Notes: generated by a model from the sequence alone, not told the origin. A stretch of 42,916 nt of DNA from Patescibacteria group bacterium (GCA_024653825.1 JANLHF010000003.1:1-42916), one strand, 5' to 3'. Counted from the stretch's first letter, positions 327 through 21,340 are shown. Made by a program: numbers and translations.

Positions 327-1658
327 ATGGAATATACGGGCAAAAAAATTTATTTCATCGGCATCGGAGGGATCGGGATGTCGGCGCTCGCGCAATATGT
401 CAAGGATAGGGGGGCAGACGTGACTGGCTCGGATAGGGAAGCGAGCCCCGTCACTGACCTTCTGGAGAAGAAGGGAATTAAGGTCGAGATTGGTCAGAGA
501 GCAGGAAATGTTTCCGAGGATGCTGAAATGGCAATTTATAGCGATTCGGTACCTGTGGATAACGTTGAGCGCATTCGCGCCACTGAGTTGGGGATAACCC
601 AAATCTCATATTTTGCAATGCTTGGGAAGGTGTCAGCGGATAAGCGCACTATCGCCATCGCGGGGACACACGGGAAGACGACGACGACGGGGATGCTCGC
701 GAAGATTCTTCATGATGCTGGGGCAGACGAGACGGCGATTATCGGCTCGATCGTTAAGGACTTTGGGTCTAATTATCTCAGCGGAGATTCAGATTTGTTT
801 GTTGTTGAAGCCTGCGAATATAAAGACCACCTCCTCGAACTCTCGCCACAAGTGCTCGTCATCACGAATCTCGAGTGGGATCATACCGATTACTTCCCTT
901 CTCTGACTTCTCTTCAGGACACCTTTAAGAAAGCGATTAAACGAGTACCGGAAGACGGCGCGATTATCACCGACCCGAATAACAGAAACATCACTTCCCT
1001 TCTGGCCAGCGCAAAAGCTCGGATTATTGATTACACTAAAGAGCCGGCATATGGGCTCGCCTTGCCGGGCGAGTTTAATCAGATGAATGCACGCGCGGCC
1101 GCCGCGGCCGCGCGTACTGCGTACTCCTCAATAACTGACGAGACCATTCGCACCTCACTTGCCTCGTTTCAGGGTACGTGGCGGAGATTTGAATATAAAG
1201 GGGAAACAGCGAAGGGCGCCGAGGTCTACGACGACTATGCGCATCACCCGACGGCTGTGCGCGAGACGCTGAAGGCGCTTCGCGGGAAAATCCGCGAGGC
1301 CCGCAAAGTGACTCCTCGCGAAGGCGAGGTGTCTCTTTGTGGGCCAGGTAAGATCATTGTTGCATTCCATCCGCATCTTTATAGCCGTACGCGTGACCTG
1401 CTCGACGAATTCGCCGTTGCTTTTGGCGATGCCGACAAAGTATTTATTGCTCCTATTTATGCCGCACGCGAAGTCGATGACGGTACGATCTCGAGCGAGA
1501 TCCTCGCGGAGCGCATCCGCGCAACCGGTACTGAATCGGTCGCACTTGATTTTGACACTATTGAAAAAGAACTCGAAAATGTTGAGTCGGGCGATACCAT
1601 CATCACGATGGGCGCGGGCGATATCTACAAAATTGCCGACGCACTAGTTAAAAAATAA
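327..1658 (+). CDS. murC: UDP-N-acetylmuramate--L-alanine ligase
   Basis: GIGGIGMSALA, AGTHGKTTTTGM, VVEACEY, NLEWDHTDY, DDYAHHPT, FHPHLYSRT, TMGAGDI motifs. Confidence 0.95.
   Translation: MEYTGKKIYFIGIGGIGMSALAQYVKDRGADVTGSDREASPVTDLLEKKGIKVEIGQRAGNVSEDAEMAIYSDSVPVDNVERIRATELGITQISYFAMLGKVSADKRTIAIAGTHGKTTTTGMLAKILHDAGADETAIIGSIVKDFGSNYLSGDSDLFVVEACEYKDHLLELSPQVLVITNLEWDHTDYFPSLTSLQDTFKKAIKRVPEDGAIITDPNNRNITSLLASAKARIIDYTKEPAYGLALPGEFNQMNARAAAAAARTAYSSITDETIRTSLASFQGTWRRFEYKGETAKGAEVYDDYAHHPTAVRETLKALRGKIREARKVTPREGEVSLCGPGKIIVAFHPHLYSRTRDLLDEFAVAFGDADKVFIAPIYAAREVDDGTISSEILAERIRATGTESVALDFDTIEKELENVESGDTIITMGAGDIYKIADALVKK
1298..1345. repeat. 48-bp intragenic palindrome in murC (frame-preserving)
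   Basis: GGCCCGCAAAG(1298-1308)/CTTTGTGGGCC(1335-1345), GAC/GTC and CCTCGC-GAAG-GCGAGG; 20 of 22 positions pair. Confidence 0.8.
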
Positions 1659-1659
1659 C

Positions 1660-1683
1660 AACGCCCCAAGAGTACGGGGCGTT
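1660..1683. terminator. Probable (bidirectional) intrinsic terminator after murC
   Basis: AACGCCCC-AAGAGTAC-GGGGCGTT hairpin right after the murC stop, between convergent ORFs; A-run upstream, TTT downstream. Confidence 0.6.
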
Positions 1684-1696
1684 TGGGTCACAAGAC

Positions 1697-1891
1697 TCAG
1701 TCGAAGAACTGCGGACCACCGATTTTCTTCACGTCAATCGGTTTCGTCTGTGCCGGAGGTGTCCCAACATGGAGTGCGGCGTCAACCGGACTCCGGAATT
1801 CTGCCGGCCAAACAAGCCTTACAGGTATCCCCAATCTTTCTTTGGGCGTGCCGACTTGGAGCGTACGTTCCATCGTGTCAAATATTTTCAT
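1697..1891 (-). CDS. Small hypothetical protein (64 aa, MKIFDTMERTLQVGTP...GGPQFFD)
   Basis: Fills the murC-rsmI gap; AGAGGA SD-like motif just before ATG 1891; ends at the murC terminator; no recognisable homology. Confidence 0.45.
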   Translation of the reverse strand: MKIFDTMERTLQVGTPKERLGIPVRLVWPAEFRSPVDAALHVGTPPAQTKPIDVKKIGGPQFFD

Positions 1892-1955
1892 ATTTCCTCT
1901 TTGGGAGCTCAATGGGTGAACGGAGCCGTTTCTTCCGTTTTTGATTGTATCTCAT

Positions 1956-1964
1956 TGCTATAAT
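1956..1964 (+). promoter_or_regulatory. Extended -10 promoter (TGcTATAAT) for rsmI
   Basis: Perfect TGnTATAAT 25 nt upstream of the rsmI ATG. Confidence 0.6.
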
Positions 1965-1989
1965 ATGTCAATTACGCTAAAGTAGGCAC

Positions 1990-2709
1990 ATGGGAACACC
2001 TTTCGAACAGACTCAAGGCAAACTCTCCATCGTCGCGACGCCGATAGGGAACTTGGAGGATATTACGCTGCGCGCCCTGCGGACGCTGAAAGAGTGCGAC
2101 GTTATCTATGCTGAGGACACACGTGTCATTTCCAAACTGCTTGCGCGATATGAAATCAAGAAACCGCTCCAACGGCTGGATGCGGCGATGGAGTCGAAGC
2201 GGGCGGACCAAATTGTTGAGCGACTCGAAGCAGGCGAGCGTGTCGCGTTTGTCAGCGACGCAGGCACTCCTGGCATCAGTGATCCGGGCGCGCGGCTCGT
2301 GGCGCAGGTGCGTGCACAATTGCTGGGCGCAAAAATTGAAGCAATACCGGGAGCTTCCGCGCTCACAGCCGCGCTCTCCATCGCGGGACTCGACACAGCC
2401 GAGTTTATCTTCCTTGGATTCCTGCCGCACAAGAAGGGTCGACAAACGACGCTGAAGCAAATCGCGGAGATGGTTCGAAAAGACTCACCACAGGGCGGAA
2501 TTCCCGTCGTATTGTATGAGTCGCCACATCGCATAGAGAAACTCTTGAAAGAATTGGAGGTGCTCGGCGTATCTCGGGTCACCATCGCCCGCGAGCTTAC
2601 TAAGATTCACGAAGAAGTTCTCTCTGGCACGCCAGCCGAATTACTCGCGCATTTTGCCGCATGCCCAGACACAGTACGGGGAGAATTTGTCGTCATTGTG
2701 ACGCCCTGA
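1990..2709 (+). CDS. rsmI: 16S rRNA (cytidine1402-2'-O)-methyltransferase
   Basis: IVATPIGNLEDITLRAL, AEDTR, VSDAGTPGISDPG, IPGASA, GFLPHK, YESPHRI, ARELTKIHEE, RGEFV. Confidence 0.95.
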   Translation: MGTPFEQTQGKLSIVATPIGNLEDITLRALRTLKECDVIYAEDTRVISKLLARYEIKKPLQRLDAAMESKRADQIVERLEAGERVAFVSDAGTPGISDPGARLVAQVRAQLLGAKIEAIPGASALTAALSIAGLDTAEFIFLGFLPHKKGRQTTLKQIAEMVRKDSPQGGIPVVLYESPHRIEKLLKELEVLGVSRVTIARELTKIHEEVLSGTPAELLAHFAACPDTVRGEFVVIVTP

Positions 2710-2721
2710 TACAATAGGAAC

Positions 2722-2931
2722 ATGTCCCGATCAAGCACCCTCATTCTATTCGGCATTTTGGTCATTCTTACGCCTTTTTCCGGGCTTCCTATATCTCTGC
2801 GCTCATTGCTCCTGGTTATCTTTGGCGCCTGCGTGTGCGGTCTTGGTTTCTCACAGCGCGTGCGCGAAGCTCGCAGTCATCAGCAGTCAGTAGAGACTCC
2901 TCCGTCTCCGCCGACCATTTCTTCCATTTAG
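2722..2931 (+). CDS. Small two-TM membrane protein
   Basis: Two hydrophobic segments; TGaTACAAT extended -10 ends 6 nt upstream of ATG. Confidence 0.7.
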   Translation: MSRSSTLILFGILVILTPFSGLPISLRSLLLVIFGACVCGLGFSQRVREARSHQQSVETPPSPPTISSI

Positions 2932-2950
2932 TTTTGGTATACTTCTAGGG

Positions 2951-4741
2951 ATGGAAAATCCCGAGCGCGTGACCTACTTCGCGGCGACTGACGCACGCGG
3001 GAAACTTATTCCTTTCGGTATTAAATCGAAGGATCGCGATCGTCACATGTATGTCATCGGTAAGACCGGTATGGGTAAGTCGACCCTCCTCGAGAATATG
3101 GCGATCCAAGATATCAGAAATGGGGAAGGCATCGCCTTTCTCGACCCGCACGGCGCGACGGTTGATCGGCTCCTCGACTATATTCCCGAAGAGCGCGTCA
3201 AAGACGTCGTCTACTTCGCGCCGTTCGACCTCGAACACCCCATCGCCTTCAACGTGATGGAGGATGTCGGCTACGACAAGCGCCATTTGGTGGTCAGCGG
3301 GCTCATGGCGACCTTCAAGAAGATCTGGGAGGACGCGTGGAGCGCGCGTATGGAATACATCCTCACCAATACGCTCCTCGCGCTTCTTGAATATCCGGAT
3401 GCGACCCTGCTCGGCGTGAATCGTATGTACACCGATAAGGATTATCGGACGAAGGTGGTGGATAACGTGAAGGATCCGGTCGTGAAGGATTTCTGGACCA
3501 AGGAGTTCGCAAACTACGGCGATCGTTACACCCAGGAGGCAACGCCGGCCATTCAAAATAAGATCGGCCAATTCACCGGCAATCCGCTCATCCGTAATAT
3601 CATTGGACAGCCGAAATCCTCGTTCGACATCCGTACGATGATGGACCAGAAGAAGATTCTCATCATGAATCTCTCGAAAGGACTTGTGGGGGAGACCAAT
3701 ATGCGTCTCTTGGGCTCGATGCTCACGACGCGTCTCTTCCTCGGCGCGATGAGCCGCGCGAATCTCTCCGGGCCCGAACTCACGAAACTTCCGCACTTTT
3801 ATTTTTATGTAGATGAATTTCAGAACTTTGCGAACCAGACATTCGCCGAGATTCTCTCCGAATCGCGCAAATATAAACTGAACCTCATCATCACGAACCA
3901 ATACATCGAGCAGATGGAGGAGGAAGTGCGCGACGCGGTGTTCGGTAACGTGGGTACGACGGTGGCATTCCGCGTTGGACCCTTTGATGCCGAAGTGTTG
4001 GAGACAGTCTTTATGCCGAAGTTTTTGAAAGAGGACATCGTGGGTCTCGATAAACGGCAGGTGTATCTCACCCTGATGATAGACGGGGTTGGCTCTTCTC
4101 CTTTTTCTGCAGTTACCATCCCGCCGATAGAAGCACCACCAGTATCTCATCGACAAGAGGTCATCGACTCGTCGCGAGAACAATTCTCTACACAGCGCGC
4201 CGGCATCGAGACAGCCATCATGGAGGAGTTCGCGGTAAGTGCGGCGGCTCCCGTTCCGCTCGATGCGCGCATGAAAAAGAAACCACCGATGCGCTCAGCT
4301 TCTTCGTATACACCGACCTCAACTCATACCACTCCATCTCATCCTCCGACCCAACTTCGCCAAGGCTACGATGGGCACAGCAAGGCTACGGAGGGCACGG
4401 TGCGCTCACCAGAAATTCGTCCTGCTCCGCCGAGTAAGAGCGCTGAAGATCTAAAAGCGATACTGCGGAATATGACGGCAAAGACCGGCGCAGAAAGGGA
4501 ACAGAAACAATCGCATACTCAGCAGGAGTTGAAAGGTACGCTCGCTGATGTGTTGCAGCTCCGACGTCAGGAGTCGGGGCTCCGACCGGAAGCGTCGGAG
4601 AAGCCCGTGACGATTCAACCGCCACAACAAAAAGCCCCGACGTCAGAAGTCGGGGTCCCGACCGGAAGCGTCGGGAAAGAGAAAAAGCCTTTTGAAGTTC
4701 CTGAAGAAGAGCTTCGAGACGTCCTCAAAGGCAAACAATAA
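2951..4741 (+). CDS. VirD4/TraG/TrwB-like (HerA/FtsK superfamily) ATPase with low-complexity C-terminal tail
   Basis: Walker A GKTGMGKS, DPHG, Walker B FYVDEFQNF, SESRKYKLNLIITNQY; TGgTATACT 7 nt upstream. Confidence 0.85.
   Translation: MENPERVTYFAATDARGKLIPFGIKSKDRDRHMYVIGKTGMGKSTLLENMAIQDIRNGEGIAFLDPHGATVDRLLDYIPEERVKDVVYFAPFDLEHPIAFNVMEDVGYDKRHLVVSGLMATFKKIWEDAWSARMEYILTNTLLALLEYPDATLLGVNRMYTDKDYRTKVVDNVKDPVVKDFWTKEFANYGDRYTQEATPAIQNKIGQFTGNPLIRNIIGQPKSSFDIRTMMDQKKILIMNLSKGLVGETNMRLLGSMLTTRLFLGAMSRANLSGPELTKLPHFYFYVDEFQNFANQTFAEILSESRKYKLNLIITNQYIEQMEEEVRDAVFGNVGTTVAFRVGPFDAEVLETVFMPKFLKEDIVGLDKRQVYLTLMIDGVGSSPFSAVTIPPIEAPPVSHRQEVIDSSREQFSTQRAGIETAIMEEFAVSAAAPVPLDARMKKKPPMRSASSYTPTSTHTTPSHPPTQLRQGYDGHSKATEGTVRSPEIRPAPPSKSAEDLKAILRNMTAKTGAEREQKQSHTQQELKGTLADVLQLRRQESGLRPEASEKPVTIQPPQQKAPTSEVGVPTGSVGKEKKPFEVPEEELRDVLKGKQ
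4343..4398. repeat. Nested palindromic element with CAAGGCTACG(AT/GA)GGGCAC direct repeats inside the ATPase gene
   Basis: 18-bp imperfect repeats at 4361-4378 and 4381-4398; CCCA..TGGG inner stem; CCTCC(4343-47)/GGAGG(4390-94) outer stem. Confidence 0.65.
4559..4676. repeat. Two copies of a 42-bp double-hairpin element (4559-4600, 4635-4676) inside the ATPase gene
   Basis: Core 38-mers 4561-4598 and 4637-4674 match at 35/38; each unit is two abutting 21-nt hairpins CCGAC-N7-GTCGG. Confidence 0.85.
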
Positions 4742-4750
4742 TACTTTTCT

Positions 4751-6043
4751 ATGCGCATCGCCGTGTTGCTTACGCTGGTTGTTCTTTTCCCAACATTCGT
4801 GTATGCAGATAGTCCTCCGACTGTCGAGACCGTGATTTTACACGACACCATATATCCGTCTGCAACCGTCGAGTCCGGACTTGCAGCGACCACTTCCATC
4901 GACATTGTTTTTTCTGAGCAAGTAAAAGCATCAATAAAAATACTGTCTGCAGATGGTACGATAATCAGTTCACTTTATTCAAGCTCAAAAGTCACAAATC
5001 CGACACCGAAGATTTGGGATGGGACGGACGATACGGGAGCGTCGGTCGGTAATGGTGTCTACATTGTTCTCATTTCTGCTGTCTCTGTTTCGACGGGACT
5101 GTCGATGACCGATTCGTCTAAAACAATCACTGTTGCACTCCCGCCGAACGACTCAGATCCCGCAGGCATCTCTTCCGACACAACAGACACACCGCCACCC
5201 TCCTCCGGCGGCGGACCCGTGGAATATTTGCCAGTGCCGACACTCCGCATTGTCACCAGTGGCGATCGAACCATCTCTTCTGGCGCGGAGGTTGCCTTTA
5301 CCGCTGTTGTGTACGACGGAAACGGAAATAAGCGCAGTGACGCCGTCGTGACGTGGTCGTTTGGCGACGGAATGCAGAAGACGGGCGCAAGCGTTTTCCA
5401 TGCGTATTACAATTCGGGCGAGTATGTCGCGACCGTGCGTGCCACGACCTCTGACGGCGGTGGAGTACTTGGCGAAAGGGTCGTCACAGTCAAAGACGCA
5501 CGCATCAAAATCACATCCGTCTCTTCGCGCGGCATTGCGCTTACGAACAGCGACTCCCGCACACTAGACCTCTCGTTGTGGCGCCTTTCGATGGGCGGGC
5601 AGGAATTCAAGATTCCCGCGGATACAAAGATTCTCGCCGACCACACCATCCTTTTCCCTTCACAAATAATCGAGTTGCCGATTGCGAACTCGGCATCTCT
5701 CCTTTATCCGAGTGGAGAAACGGCTGCCGTATATCCGAGCGTTGCGGTCGCGCCAACGACAGTCGTGCAACCTACAGCGAACAAAATGAGTTATGAACAA
5801 GTACAGGCGGTTGAGCCACCTGTAACACATACCGTCGAACCGATTATACGCACGGAAAACATTCAAGCACATGAAGAAGCAGTAAGTGCCCCCACAGCGG
5901 CGATTGAAGTCGCGGCTGTGGGGGCGGCATCACTCGAATCGTCGGCGCCCGGCTCTTCTGTCGCGGAAATGTTCAAATCTCCGTGGGCGTTCGGCCTTCT
6001 CGGAGTCATTGTCGTAGCCAGCGGGGCGTTTATTCTTCTCTAA
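4751..6043 (+). CDS. Secreted, C-terminally anchored surface protein (FlgD-Ig-like + PKD + lamin-tail-like domains)
   Basis: Signal peptide; IWDGTDDTGASVGNGVYIVLI (FlgD_ig-like); TWSFGDG..HAYYNSGEYVATV (PKD); LTNSDSRTLDLSLWRL (LTD-like); S/T/P-rich linkers; C-terminal TM. Confidence 0.75.
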   Translation: MRIAVLLTLVVLFPTFVYADSPPTVETVILHDTIYPSATVESGLAATTSIDIVFSEQVKASIKILSADGTIISSLYSSSKVTNPTPKIWDGTDDTGASVGNGVYIVLISAVSVSTGLSMTDSSKTITVALPPNDSDPAGISSDTTDTPPPSSGGGPVEYLPVPTLRIVTSGDRTISSGAEVAFTAVVYDGNGNKRSDAVVTWSFGDGMQKTGASVFHAYYNSGEYVATVRATTSDGGGVLGERVVTVKDARIKITSVSSRGIALTNSDSRTLDLSLWRLSMGGQEFKIPADTKILADHTILFPSQIIELPIANSASLLYPSGETAAVYPSVAVAPTTVVQPTANKMSYEQVQAVEPPVTHTVEPIIRTENIQAHEEAVSAPTAAIEVAAVGAASLESSAPGSSVAEMFKSPWAFGLLGVIVVASGAFILL

Positions 6044-6079
6044 CTCGCGTTTCTTCACTTTTTATACTAGTCTTCCATC

Positions 6080-6937
6080 ATGACAGGTCAGAAACTTATT
6101 TTGGTTACCGGCGGGGCGGGCTTCATTGGTTCGCATCTTTGCGCACGCCTCGTGAAAGACGGTCACCGCGTTATCTCGCTCGATAATTATTTTACTGGTA
6201 GCCGTGAGAATCACGTTCCTGGCGTCGACTACCGAGAAGGTCATACGAAGAATATAGAGAAGCACATTCCTGAGACTCCGGATCTCATCTACCATCTCGG
6301 TGAATACTCGCGTGTTGAAAAGAGCCTTGAGGAGCCCGCACTCGTCTGGGATCTCAATAAAGACGGTACGTTTGGTGTCGTAGAATTTTGGAGAAAAAAG
6401 AAAGGGAAACTTGTCTATGCCGGTTCGTCTACAAAGTTTGGCGATGGCGGTCTTGGTCGTATGCAAAGTCCTTATGCGTGGACGAAGGCCTCCAACACTG
6501 AACTGGTTAAAAATTACAGTGCGTGGTATGACCTGTCGCACGCAATCACTTATTTTTACAACGTATACGGCCCCGGCGAGCGTTCAGGCGCTTATGGAAC
6601 GGTTATCGAAATTTTCAGACAGGAACAGCAGGCAGAAAAACCTCTTGTCGTGACTGCACCAGGGACGCAAAAACGTAACTTTACTCACGTGGACGATATT
6701 ATCGATGGACTCATCCTTGTTGGAGAAAACGGTGTGGGAGACGACTTCGGCATTGGCAACGAGCATGCTTATTCGATTCTTGAAGTAGCGCACCTCTTCG
6801 GTGAAGAGGTTGTTATGAAGCCTGCCGCACTAGGCAATCGTATGGGGGCGACACTAGACACAACAAAAACACGCGCGCTAGGCTGGATTCCTAAAAAGAA
6901 TCTCATTGATTATATAAATGAAGTTAAAAGGAAATGA
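6080..6937 (+). CDS. NAD-dependent epimerase/dehydratase (extended SDR)
   Basis: TGGAGFIGSHL, GSS, SPYAWTK (YxxxK), YFYNVYGP, RNFTHVDDI. Confidence 0.9.
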   Translation: MTGQKLILVTGGAGFIGSHLCARLVKDGHRVISLDNYFTGSRENHVPGVDYREGHTKNIEKHIPETPDLIYHLGEYSRVEKSLEEPALVWDLNKDGTFGVVEFWRKKKGKLVYAGSSTKFGDGGLGRMQSPYAWTKASNTELVKNYSAWYDLSHAITYFYNVYGPGERSGAYGTVIEIFRQEQQAEKPLVVTAPGTQKRNFTHVDDIIDGLILVGENGVGDDFGIGNEHAYSILEVAHLFGEEVVMKPAALGNRMGATLDTTKTRALGWIPKKNLIDYINEVKRK

Positions 6938-8100
6938 AACGAGTCCTCATTTTTTCTCTTGCATACTATCCTCATGTGGGTGGTGCCGAGGTGGCCATAA
7001 AAGAAATCACCGGCCGCATGCCGGATATTGAGTTTCATATGGTAACCATGCGCTTCTCTGTTGCCGAAGCGCGTGAAGAAAAAATCGGCAATGTGTTCGT
7101 ACATCGCATTGGGAACGGTAGCGGCAAGTTGAGCAAATTCTTTTTTCAGTTTTACGCGGCGAGGAAAGCCGTGGTGCTGCATCGGCAGAACAAGTTCGAC
7201 GGCATCTGGGCGATGATGGCTCATTCGTCCGGAGTTCCTGCCGGCTTGTTCAAAACATTCCATCCGGAGGTGAAGTATTTTCTCACGCTTCAAGAAGGAG
7301 ATCCTCCCGAATACATCGAACGGTTGATGCTCCCAGTGTGGCCGCTCTTCAAGCGTGGATTCACGAAGGCTGATGCAGTTGTGGCGGAATCGACGTTTCT
7401 CGGGCGCTGGGCGCGCCGTATGGGATTTACAGGGCCTCTCGAAGTTATACCGAACGGCATGGATGCCGACCGCTTTGCACAAGTGCCTGCCACAGGGCTT
7501 CTGGAAACGATCCGCACGAAGATTGGAGTGAAGGAGGACGAGACCTGGCTCATCCACACTGGCCGGTTGGTGTACAAGAATGCGCTCGATATAGTGATCT
7601 GTGCGCTGCCGCTTCTGCCAGAACACATACATATATTTATGATCGGTGACGGCCCCGACAAGAGCGCCCTTGCGGAGCTTGCGCGCGAACTGGGTGTCAC
7701 AGCGCGAACACACTTTCACCCGTATGTGCCGCTCACCGACATTCCAAATTATTTGAAAGCATGCGATGTATTTATTCGCCCATCGCGTTCTGAAGGCATG
7801 GGCAACTCATTTATTGAAGCAATGGCGGCAGAATTGCCGGTCATCGCGACACAGGAGGGCGGTATCGCGGACTTTCTTTTTGATGCGAAACGCAATCCGG
7901 ATAAAGAAACGACCGGCTGGGCGGTAGACAAAAACTCGCCTGAACAGATCGCAGAAGCAGTTGAGGATATCCTCGCGCATCCCGAACAAGTTGCGCGCGT
8001 AAAGGAAAACGCGAAGAAAATGGTTTTTGAAAAATACGACTGGAATCTCATTGCCGCGCAGATGAGGTCGGTTTTCGACCGGGTGTTCGAAAACCGTTAG
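6934..8100 (+). CDS. Glycosyltransferase family 4
   Basis: YYPHVGGAE N-terminus; PSRSEGMGNSFIEAMA (E-x7-E). Confidence 0.9.
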   Translation: MKRVLIFSLAYYPHVGGAEVAIKEITGRMPDIEFHMVTMRFSVAEAREEKIGNVFVHRIGNGSGKLSKFFFQFYAARKAVVLHRQNKFDGIWAMMAHSSGVPAGLFKTFHPEVKYFLTLQEGDPPEYIERLMLPVWPLFKRGFTKADAVVAESTFLGRWARRMGFTGPLEVIPNGMDADRFAQVPATGLLETIRTKIGVKEDETWLIHTGRLVYKNALDIVICALPLLPEHIHIFMIGDGPDKSALAELARELGVTARTHFHPYVPLTDIPNYLKACDVFIRPSRSEGMGNSFIEAMAAELPVIATQEGGIADFLFDAKRNPDKETTGWAVDKNSPEQIAEAVEDILAHPEQVARVKENAKKMVFEKYDWNLIAAQMRSVFDRVFENR

Positions 8101-8109
8101 AATACAAAT

Positions 8110-9180
8110 ATGCGCCTTGTTATTGCCACTCCTTTGTATCCGCCGGAAATCGGCGGGCCGGCGACGTATGTGCGGTTGCTTGAAGAAGGATTGCCGAAAA
8201 AGGGTATTGAAGTAACGGTGGTGAAATTTAGCGACGTGCGGCACTTGCCGAAATTCATTCGTCATTATGCCTACTATCGTCATGTGCTCGCGGCAGCGTA
8301 CGATGCAGACGTGGTACTCGCACTTGATCCGGTCTCGGTTGGATTCCCAGCGATGAAGGCGGCGCAGAAAGCGGGGAAGCCGTTTGTGGTGAAAATTGTC
8401 GGCGATTACGCGTGGGAGCAGGGGCAACAACGGTTTGGTGTCACGCAGAGTTTAGATGAATTCGTGAAGACGGAGAACGTTTCCTTTTTTGTACGTGTGT
8501 TCAGAAGGATTCAAACGCGCGTGGCGCGAAGCGCTACGCGCGTCATCGTCCCGAGCGAGTACCTGAAAGGCATCGTGGAATCGTGGAGGTCGCCTTCGCA
8601 GGGCTTCGGCGGACCAAGTATTTCACAGAAAAAGATAACGGTTATCTACAACGCCGTTACTCCCGAGGCAATCGGGACAGTGCCGAAAATGGTGCAGGAC
8701 TTGCCACGGCCGCTGGTGGTTTCCGTGGGCCGGCTCGTGCCGTGGAAGGGCTTTGACGGCCTTATACGGGCCGTAGAGGCCATCGGAGCCTCACTGGTAA
8801 TCGTCGGGGACGGCCCCGAACGGGAGGCTCTTGCGAAGTTTCTGGGCAATCATATGGTGCTCACAGGGTCGCTTTCTCATGCCGACACGCTCGCCATGAT
8901 GAAAAGCGCGGACGTGTTTGCACTCAACTCGTCGTACGAAGGATTGTCGCACGTACTAGTGGAAGCCCTCGCGCTCGGTGTGCCAATTGTGGCAACGGAT
9001 GCGGGAGGCAATCGGGAAATCATTGAAGACGGAGTGTCAGGAACACTGGTGCCGGTCGGTGATATGGACGCGCTTGTGCGCGCACTGCAATCTCCGAAAT
9101 TGTCTGCGCATGGTGCCGCGTCTCGCTTCACGAAAGAACGGATGCTTGAGGCGACGACGACTCTTCTCAAAACTATATGA
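8110..9180 (+). CDS. Glycosyltransferase family 4
   Basis: YPPEIGGPATY; GRLVPWKG; SSYEGLSHVLVEALA. Confidence 0.9.
   Translation: MRLVIATPLYPPEIGGPATYVRLLEEGLPKKGIEVTVVKFSDVRHLPKFIRHYAYYRHVLAAAYDADVVLALDPVSVGFPAMKAAQKAGKPFVVKIVGDYAWEQGQQRFGVTQSLDEFVKTENVSFFVRVFRRIQTRVARSATRVIVPSEYLKGIVESWRSPSQGFGGPSISQKKITVIYNAVTPEAIGTVPKMVQDLPRPLVVSVGRLVPWKGFDGLIRAVEAIGASLVIVGDGPEREALAKFLGNHMVLTGSLSHADTLAMMKSADVFALNSSYEGLSHVLVEALALGVPIVATDAGGNREIIEDGVSGTLVPVGDMDALVRALQSPKLSAHGAASRFTKERMLEATTTLLKTI
8588..8615. repeat. Short palindromic element inside the GT4 gene
   Basis: GGTCGCC-TTCGCAGGGCTTC-GGCG(G)ACC; shares the CTTCGC..AGGCTnCG core with 4355-4370; encodes RSPSQGFGG. Confidence 0.6.
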
Positions 9181-21310: not shown

Positions 21311-21340
21311 AAAAGCCGCCAGCATCTGCTGGTGGCTTTT
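21311..21340. terminator. Bidirectional intrinsic terminator
   Basis: AAAAGCCGCCAGCA-TC-TGCTGGTGGCTTTT. Confidence 0.8.

Follow-up and report, generated by a model that had tools for sequence, protein, structure and literature searches.

The described systems closest to the DNA elements reported here are the REP/REPIN-RAYT systems, that is, repetitive extragenic palindromes (REPs) with a REP-associated tyrosine transposase (RAYT), for which the nearest sources are Di Nocera et al. 2013 (PMC3733652) and Bertels & Rainey 2011 (PMC3116915), and the Rickettsia palindromic elements (RPEs; Ogata et al. 2000, as cited in PMC1779305 and PMC1458961). The elements in question lie in a 42.9-kb contig (49% GC) of an uncultured Patescibacteria (Candidate Phyla Radiation, CPR) bacterium (GCA_024653825.1 JANLHF010000003.1:1-42916), which was analysed over its whole length and is called the window. 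The most prominent of them, E1, is a 48-nt imperfect palindrome inside the housekeeping gene murC. On its best MurC homologues, which carry those names, the organism is assigned to the Paceibacteria/Kaiserbacteria-type CPR. We consider it likely that REP/RPE-like families of short palindromic repeats (~25-48 nt) insert into CPR genes and spacers, and that the murC element is one such copy.

Like the elements of this clade, REPs are imperfect palindromes of short length (20-40 nt) in which mismatches are conserved, and they form genome-specific subfamilies; they occur in many copies per genome, and up to six E1-type copies were found on one 65-kb contig of a relative. Also shared are the placement between co-directional ORFs, the presence of some copies in genes, notably repair genes of the uvrA/uvrB type, where they encode from a few to 30 residues, and a single conserved Y1 transposase gene in the clade that is bracketed by inverted hairpins. 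Intragenic REPs have been reported in Opitutus terrae, in Rickettsia conorii (the short RPE-4 and RPE-6, which are CGTC-tagged REPs) and in other species, many of them in replication and repair genes (PMC3733652). However, a REP has an unpaired GTAG or CGTC tag at one end (PMC3733652), whereas E1 has no tag and its copies are mostly singlets and not inverted doublets. With the RPEs, which are the textbook example of palindromes inserted in frame, the elements have in common that they are selfish palindromic repeats standing in frame at permissive sites in unrelated housekeeping genes of a small, reduced genome, and that no transposase is encoded within the element; the CPR elements likewise were found inserted in frame in unrelated protein genes with an intact flanking frame. 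They differ in being 25-48 nt long, in belonging to another phylum and in lacking the CGTC tag of RPE-4 and RPE-6, and length sets them apart from the RPE-1 type, whose classical elements measure ~100-150 bp.

Other systems are more distant. A miniature inverted-repeat transposable element has terminal inverted repeats around an internal segment and a target-site duplication, whereas the whole of E1 is one hairpin with no flanking direct repeat. The coding palindromes of Nematomorpha mitochondria (PMC6649704) and organelle hairpin elements also place inverted repeats in coding sequence with both arms translated, but the Nematomorpha palindromes are up to 284 bp long, perfect and organellar, and do not form a dispersed short-core family. 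A literature search gave no paper linking Patescibacteria/CPR with such repeats, which is no proof that none exists.

The murC hairpin and its empty site

The gene, the element and the insertion that contains it are as follows.

327-1658: MurC, the housekeeping gene hosting the murC element
1298..1345, + strand: E1, 48-nt imperfect palindrome in murC (from the fold z and the recurrence of its arms in metagenome stretches)
1296..1346, + strand: 17-codon (51-nt) MurC insertion relative to the empty site AKxKGK (from alignments of 120 homologues and 72 species loci)

The core of E1 (1308-1335) reads GTGACTCCTCG-CGAAGG-CGAGGTGTCTC, with two T.T mismatches in the arms, and is closed by an outer stem GGCCCGCAAA/TTTGTGGGCC; the element encodes (E)ARKVTPREGEVSLCGP. 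DNA folding energies were compared with 200 shuffles per element, and the -21.9 kcal/mol of E1 was reached in 0/200 (z -7.95), making it the strongest hairpin among all sliding 50-nt windows of the contig. With RNA parameters, block-wise dinucleotide shuffles of the window never fell below -28 kcal/mol, as compared to -35.8 kcal/mol observed in a scan with 10-nt steps, and E1 reached -38.6 kcal/mol when the step was 5 nt. A count of perfect-stem hairpins (9 in the window versus 4.5 in shuffles) was discarded as too crude, imperfect elements being missed by it. Rfam 15 gave no gathering-level match in the window, nor for the murC-type element in eight E1-bearing loci. The murC, ATPase and GT4 elements all lie inside ORFs and none is followed by a T-run, so that they do not have the makeup of intrinsic terminators.

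Among the 120 closest MurC homologues (70-78% identity), 83 read ...ALRAKxKGKIIVAFHPH and have no insert, while the other 37 carry inserts of 3 to ~35 residues at exactly the E1 point. These inserts are of unrelated kinds (REVTPRG / RKATPCG, KETPRSEESPR, GLPAGQAG, GPPSLGSSGRAS, SAGGGSASGG), and their types are spread across the MurC tree without forming clades. The same picture was obtained from 80 species-representative genomes with conserved synteny (1.04 Mb around murC). The site was readable in 72 of the 80 and was an unstructured 18-nt AKxKGK in 60 of these 72, whereas it forms a strong hairpin in the loci L009, L010, L014, L020, L030 and L049. In L010, the insert contains the arms of the window's E1 in reverse-complement form (GAGACACCTCG...CGAGGAGTCAC); in L049, the site extends over 123 nt with nested, partly duplicated arms; L009 and L014 share yet another hairpin type, the one read as GLPAGQAG (CCTGCCTGCCGGTCAGGCAGG). 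The initial annotation had taken the palindromes for insertions, and the empty sites in MurC, together with those of the glycosyltransferase described below, bear this out.

In the protein, the insertion separates the helix that follows the HHPT motif from the strand IIVAFHPH, the peptide across it reading, for example, KVTPREGEVSLCGPGK. An AlphaFold (AF2) model of the window's MurC, with a predicted local distance difference test (pLDDT) score of 86, has a helix at 308-327, a coil at 328-342 and a strand at 343-348; the insert would form the end of this helix and the coil, where the predicted confidence is locally lowest (pLDDT 61-76).

A second palindrome of murC, 1091-1115 (ACGCGCGGCCGCCGCGGCCGCGCGT), was rejected as an extra element; it encodes the conserved native NARAAAAAART and recurs in orthologues. 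The same applies to 8515-8543 (ACGCGCGTGGCGCGAAGCGCTACGCGCGT) in a GT4 glycosyltransferase gene (GT4b), which encodes the conserved TRVARSATRV (QTRVARSATRV) and also recurs in orthologues. In both places, runs of Ala and Arg codons are largely self-complementary by default.

E1-type copies in genes and spacers of related genomes

Metagenome contigs of the Joint Genome Institute (JGI) were scanned with the pattern GTGACTCCTCG-N(1-9)-CGAGGWGTCWC, and the arms of E1 were found to recur in at least 80 stretches with 89 matches listed. In 74 of the 89 matches listed the loop is 3 nt long, most often CCG, and both T.T mismatches are kept in 68 of them; the window's variant with a 6-nt CGAAGG loop was also found in a TsaD gene (L130). 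The family thus described has a core of 25-28 nt within a full stem-loop of 37-48 nt, with two conserved mismatches. Its invariant core is bordered by AAG/CTT (or GAG/CTC), followed by a variable basal stem averaging 6.7 bp, the sequence of which changes from copy to copy while complementarity is kept. In 71 copies, 87% of the outer-stem cells were paired, and covariation was 0.249 as compared to 0.105 when shuffled (0/500) and at most 0.096 when slid. The basal stems of a given contig belong to one subfamily, such as CCGTAAG...CTTACGG at four sites of L119, which would be the expected outcome of amplification from genome-specific master copies. One 65-kb contig carries six E1-type copies and one 105-kb contig three.

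Identified housekeeping genes contain at least 41 of the 89 matches listed (at least 46%), distributed over ~17 distinct sites in 13 families, whereas REPs are predominantly extragenic. The hosts are UvrC (four sites), GAPDH, UvrD, TrmD, Dus, HhH-GPD glycosylase, RecG, UvrB, TsaD, PyrD, MurC, MurD and GT4, and 50 of the 89 matches listed fall in ORFs of at least 450 nt. In the loci L081-L160, DNA-repair genes are prominent among the hosts, namely those for UvrB, UvrC (at its four sites), UvrD, RecG and HhH-GPD glycosylase. This prominence may reflect gene length, dispensability or targeting. A further ~14 matches are located in the rpsQ-rplN (S17-L14) spacer, sometimes as 2-3 tandem copies. 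This spacer is a hot spot for E1-type copies (L110 947-1060 and ~13 other metagenome loci), and the 2-3 tandem copies of L110 have a 42-nt period and identical 17-nt spacers. Other intergenic copies lie 2-70 nt from ORF ends between co-directional genes, some being followed by a T-run. The elements are therefore not unique to their sites, as the initial annotation had proposed: the E1 core is dispersed among unrelated genes and spacers of related metagenomic genomes, and a second element of the window, E3, occurs in another gene of L049.

The same DNA is translated in different ways. In one orientation it is read as VTPRxEVSP or GDSSxRGVS and in the other as ETPRxEESP, GDTSxRGVT or RRHLAARSH, so that five open frames are used over both orientations; the sixth, which contains TGA, was not seen. 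In orthologous proteins, the same site has either the T.T or the A.A form on the gene strand, and inversion of the entire hairpin may account for this. The loop on that strand is often CAG whichever form is present, possibly because the loop codon is under selection. These data bear on whether the inserts were selected as added peptides, palindromy being incidental. The inserts do stand in frame in loops or linkers, but the same DNA yields unrelated peptides in five frames and both orientations, the two E3 copies are read in different frames within one protein, and many copies are intergenic. Since the frame data contradict selection on the peptide, such innovation at the protein level is extremely improbable, and the earlier claim that related copies are translated in different frames holds for both E1 and E3.

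Short hairpins of the RKVTPYG type (CGTAAGGTGACACCTTACG) recur beside full E1 copies. Loss of 18 nt between CACCT direct repeats could have produced them from the full element, and, if this derivation holds, many of the small MurC inserts would be decay products.

Other hairpins of the window

The remaining elements are found in an ATPase and a glycosyltransferase gene downstream of murC, in the following arrangement.

Between the MurC and ATPase genes: RsmI-like methylase
Between the RsmI-like methylase and ATPase genes: small membrane protein
2951-4741: TraG/VirD4-like ATPase
4361..4398, + strand: E2, 20-nt tandem duplication (CAAGGCTACGRWGGGCACRG x1.9) in the ATPase linker (88% matches)
4557..4603, + strand: E3a, double 21-nt hairpin unit in the variable C-terminal ATPase linker (from the fold test and related copies in L010 and L049)
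4633..4679, + strand: E3b, second copy of the E3 double-hairpin unit (87% identical to E3a)
4751-6043: secreted PKD-domain protein
After the PKD-domain gene: epimerase
6934-8100: GT4 glycosyltransferase, GT4a
8110-9180: GT4 glycosyltransferase, GT4b, with other glycosyltransferase genes elsewhere in the window
8587..8616, + strand: E4, 30-nt in-frame GT4 insertion with the peptide RSPSQGFGGP (from orthologue alignment)

E3a (CTCCGAC-GTCAGGA-GTCGGGG + CTCCGAC-CGGAAGC-GTCGGAG) and E3b are 47 nt each and lie 76 nt apart, both consisting of two 21-nt hairpins that share a CCGAC/GTCGG stem, with z -3.0 and -4.6. As the 76-nt offset is not divisible by 3, translation of the two differs, E3a being read as LRRQESGLRPEASEK and E3b as APTSEVGVPTGSVGKE. 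In L010 and L049, the orthologous part of the ATPase tail also carries related copies, with two in L010 whose frames follow the opposite order. A further copy, in reverse orientation, is found in the L049 gene for the PKD protein; the window and the other orthologues have none there. In 80 metagenome loci (0.5 Mb), no new E3 copies were found beyond the L010 contig; E3 would thus be a young, low-copy family of the window's subclade. The cores of E1 and E3 had 0 matches in viral contigs. ATPase residues ~440-575 make up a hypervariable linker rich in Pro, Ser and Arg, which differs in length and sequence in every orthologue and is where the repeats accumulate; it is bounded by the conserved ATPase domain (ending ...DARMKKKP) and the C-terminal motif KPFEVPEEELRKVLKGE (KPFEVPEE..LRKVLKGE).

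The two copies of E2 are read in two frames (QGYDGHS / KATEGT), and the orthologues of L049 and L020 have one unit (KATEGT). The hairpin units of 21 nt that the initial annotation had described are thus right for E3, whereas the period at 4361-4398 is 20 nt. In the GT4 gene, the 10-codon insert of E4 is lacking in 27/27 orthologues. It aligns at 24/27 positions (0/2000 shuffles) with an imperfect hairpin (GGCCCCACTTCGCTCGGAAGCTTCGGCGGGGC, peptide GPTSLGSFGGAS) of the L165 murC hot spot, on which basis E4 is probably a decayed member of a third hairpin family; E2 resembles the same L165 hairpin weakly. A stricter 14-nt motif built from E2 and E4 matched only the window. Two other searches for families were set aside: an 11-mer census of the syntenic loci was swamped by conserved genes and tRNAs (CAAGGCTACG being apparently repeated in 16 loci), and 9-mer single-linkage clustering of 335 hairpins gave one GC-rich cluster and defined no families, although it exposed a conserved hairpin in the PKD-domain gene.

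Further hairpin families were observed in relatives. An identical 30-nt perfect palindrome (TCCGCCGGAGGCGGATCCGCCTCCGGCGGA, SAGGGSASGG) is present in murC of L167 (~1175-1204) and in uvrB of L107 (~6504-6533) and, as judged from these two unrelated genes on different contigs, is another dispersed intragenic family. Lineage-specific inserts in six conserved genes of relatives are often near-perfect hairpins. The rsmI gene of L078, for example, has one of 57 nt, and murC of L030 has three, among them a pair of the same sequence read in different frames; a protein-level indel in GT4a, unlike these, is not a hairpin. Several hairpin families act alike in this clade.

Palindromes may also arise de novo where they stand, through replication template switching or inverted duplication, in which case there would be no mobile family and the murC loop would merely be tolerant. 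The murC site bears at least six unrelated hairpin types in different lineages, and nested, partly duplicated arms occur in both orientations at hot spots (the 123 nt of L049; the flanks of metagenome copies). E2 is a plain local tandem duplication, the E3 copy in the L049 PKD gene is inverted and only ~1.3 kb away from that in the ATPase tail, which is the pattern expected of template switching, and this process is known to create hairpins (PMC10710096). However, local copying from a neighbour cannot produce the dispersal of E1, because an identical 22-nt core with the same two mismatches stands in at least 13 unrelated protein families and in spacers, on many contigs; E1 forms genome-specific subfamilies, and the whole murC hairpin is extra relative to the empty site. 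A purely local origin is therefore very unlikely. Template switching may contribute to the growth of hot spots, and it accounts for E2.

The second-strongest hairpin of the window (z -7.9), absent from the first reading, is located at 5888-5925 on the + strand (GCCCCCACAGCGGCGATTGAAGTCGCGGCTGTGGGGGC), in the PKD-domain ORF and ~120 nt before its stop. This hairpin was not inserted: in 33 species, the orthologous place is occupied by one of exactly 38 nt that has a GCCCC...GGGGC clamp. In this alignment, 95% of the cells are paired and 12 of the 16 pairs have compensatory changes, with a covariation of 0.50 versus 0.147 when shuffled (0/500) in loci that were picked because the hairpin was detected there. 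The peptide drifts (APTAAIEVAAVGA / APTETVETASVGA / APGGRPPRRPPGA). A covarying stem with a drifting peptide argues for selection on nucleic-acid structure within the coding sequence.

The uptake sequences of Neisseria and Haemophilus (DNA uptake sequences and uptake signal sequences) are short motifs in both orientations, often in inverted pairs, which are frequent in genes, are biased towards genome maintenance with a similar preference for repair genes, are mostly the product of substitutions within sequence already present, and have a frequency of about one per kb. By contrast, the whole hairpins of the CPR are insertions and at least 10 times rarer than that. That the elements are selected signals, kept and possibly spread on account of a functional DNA or RNA structure (a terminator, mRNA stabiliser, processing site or, in a competent CPR cell, an inverted uptake-type pair), with the peptide as a by-product, is quite unlikely. 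On its side are the invariant core and mismatches of E1 next to a covarying basal stem, the intergenic copies close to ORF ends in co-directional operons, some with T-runs, the 38-nt hairpin of the PKD gene kept by compensatory changes, and hosts rich in DNA-repair genes, a bias also reported for intragenic REPs of other phyla (PMC3733652). Yet E1, E3 and E4 are lineage-specific and lacking in most orthologues, which speaks against a conserved function at these sites, the murC copy is not followed by a T-run, density is ~1 per 10 kb at best, and Rfam has no match. A selected function is thus unlikely for the window's own copies, which most orthologues lack.

Two terminator-like hairpins stand at gene ends, 1660-1683 (AACGCCCCAAGAGTACGGGGCGTT), just after the murC stop, and 21311-21340 (AAAAGCCGCCAGCATCTGCTGGTGGCTTTT), and the intergenic regions of relatives contain many ACAAAAACACCC-loop-GGGTGTTTTTGT hairpins. 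Most of the window (6934-42485) is one large cluster for glycan/cell-surface biosynthesis, with at least 12 glycosyltransferases (GT4, GT2, GT9), five class-I methyltransferases, a B12-binding radical-SAM enzyme, a carbamoyltransferase, epimerases/dehydratases, an SIS-CBS isomerase, a flippase-type Polysacc_synt protein and several large ORFs without a Pfam match.

A RAYT-like transposase and the origin of the repeats

The search for RAYT/IS200-like Y1 transposases to which the initial annotation pointed did reveal a RAYT-like family in the clade. When all ORFs in the 1.58 Mb of loci collected were screened for motifs, two homologous proteins of ~225 residues were identified, each encoded next to an E1-bearing gap gene.

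L102 151-831, - strand: RAYT-like gene
L155 1391-2053, + strand: RAYT-like gene
L161-L164 and L168-L171: further RAYT-like genes

All 30 of the 30 homologues sampled match Pfam PF01797 (Y1_Tnp) at 22.5-23.7 bits against a 23-bit cut-off. The match to the NCBIfam model REP_Tyr_transpos ('REP-associated tyrosine transposase') has an E value of 6.7e-7 and, at 29 bits, lies far below the 80-bit cut-off for RAYTs. Homologues form 3045 clusters at E<=1e-10, most of them ~62-70% identical to the query, and are annotated as 'transposase' in Kaiserbacteria, Minisyncoccota and Paceibacterota. Neither the protein nor its profile had a meaningful match among PDB sequences, and the AF2 model of the protein is poor (pLDDT 54). 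The gene stands in conserved contexts such as cysS-dnaB-recR with roughly one match per Mb sampled, and because of this it fits a single-copy, vertically inherited gene. In 8/8 distinct loci examined, inverted hairpins with a conserved apex GGTTTCGTAAACC (GGACCTACGAGGTCC in one locus) and a variable base stand on either side of it, and a hairpin-bracketed gene is the architecture described for RAYT genes and REPs (PMC3733652, PMC3116915, PMC5581495). In L102 and L155, the transposase gene itself also contains an in-frame copy of this hairpin type (NIKGLRNPYFY / HSGGFVNPHIR). No hairpins of the bracketing type were found in the window.

Several observations weigh against mobile REP/RPE-like families as the source of the window's elements. 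The hairpins that bracket the RAYT-like gene belong to a family other than E1 or E3 in 8/8 loci, whereas a RAYT gene is flanked by its own REP, and because of this the enzyme is a candidate mobiliser of the window's elements by inference only; no transposase gene is encoded in the window. Neither a conserved GTAG/CGTC tag (71 copies with 8 nt beyond each stem) nor a target-site duplication or flanking direct repeat was found at the E1 copies. The window has a single copy of E1 and two of E3, as compared to up to six on 65 kb in relatives, where densities are biased upward since the metagenome loci were chosen by the pattern itself. In the 1.04 Mb around murC sampled from the 80 species genomes, the E1 core is present only in L010 and L049, both times at murC; the family is hence lineage-restricted, and part of the sharing at murC would be by descent, which makes independent insertions fewer than copies. 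Finally, of the four hairpin elements in three coding sequences that had first been proposed, those at 1298-1345 in murC and at 4557-4603/4633-4679 in the ATPase gene fold above shuffles, whereas 4343-4398 (z -1.4, 22/200 shuffles) and 8588-8615 (z -0.2, 72/200 shuffles) do not.

We nevertheless favour insertion by REP/RPE-like families as the likely origin, since direct observation covers the hairpins and their empty sites, the spread into unrelated genes, the use of both orientations and five frames, and the division into subfamilies. By this comparison, the CPR elements would work like REPs and RPEs without belonging to the tagged REP superfamily, given that they have no tag, are not mainly extragenic and are not the repeat flanking the RAYT-like gene. 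The earlier REP/RPE-like label is therefore apt as a likeness and not as a statement of membership, while the proposal that palindromic elements add peptide segments to proteins is upheld in substance by the empty sites and the dispersal.

Under such an origin, the elements would move as hairpins of single-stranded DNA on which an HUH/Y1 enzyme acts, and the RAYT-like transposase of the clade is the sole candidate seen for it. Unusually often, copies stand in frame in housekeeping genes, where they add 9-17 residues in tolerant loops or linkers, and only inserts with lengths divisible by 3 and stop-free frames survive. After insertion, copies would decay by in-frame deletions, the 18-nt loss leading to RKVTPYG-type mini-hairpins being an example, and would build up in a small number of permissive hot spots, the murC loop among them. 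The ATPase pair would then be a second, younger low-copy family and the GT4 insert probably a decayed copy of a third, with 4361-4398 as a local tandem duplication.

A bolder possibility, which we hold to be unlikely, is that the intragenic hairpins of Paceibacteria-type CPR are a maintained layer of the genome, seeded by the vertically inherited RAYT-like enzyme. Some hairpins would have been fixed and conserved at the nucleic-acid level, with functions in expression, replication or DNA uptake, and protein loops would be partly dictated by DNA structure; the 38-nt hairpin of the PKD gene, kept in 33 species while its peptide drifts, serves as the example.

CPR genomes of ~1 Mb are regarded as streamlined, yet several REP-like hairpin families are present in their core genes (murC, murD, gap, uvrB/C/D, recG, trmD, tsaD). 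Together with a clade-wide domesticated Y1 transposase, these families suggest that selfish or semi-domesticated repeats persist in streamlined genomes. They also offer a concrete origin for lineage-specific extra segments and low-complexity peptides in CPR proteins, such as VTPRxEVSP, GDTSxRGVT, SAGGGSASGG and GLPAGQAG. The inserts may be masked in annotation and alignment, may be used as strain markers, and show, as a natural map, which loops of essential enzymes tolerate insertions. The clade would thereby be a system for asking whether HUH enzymes mobilise untagged hairpins.

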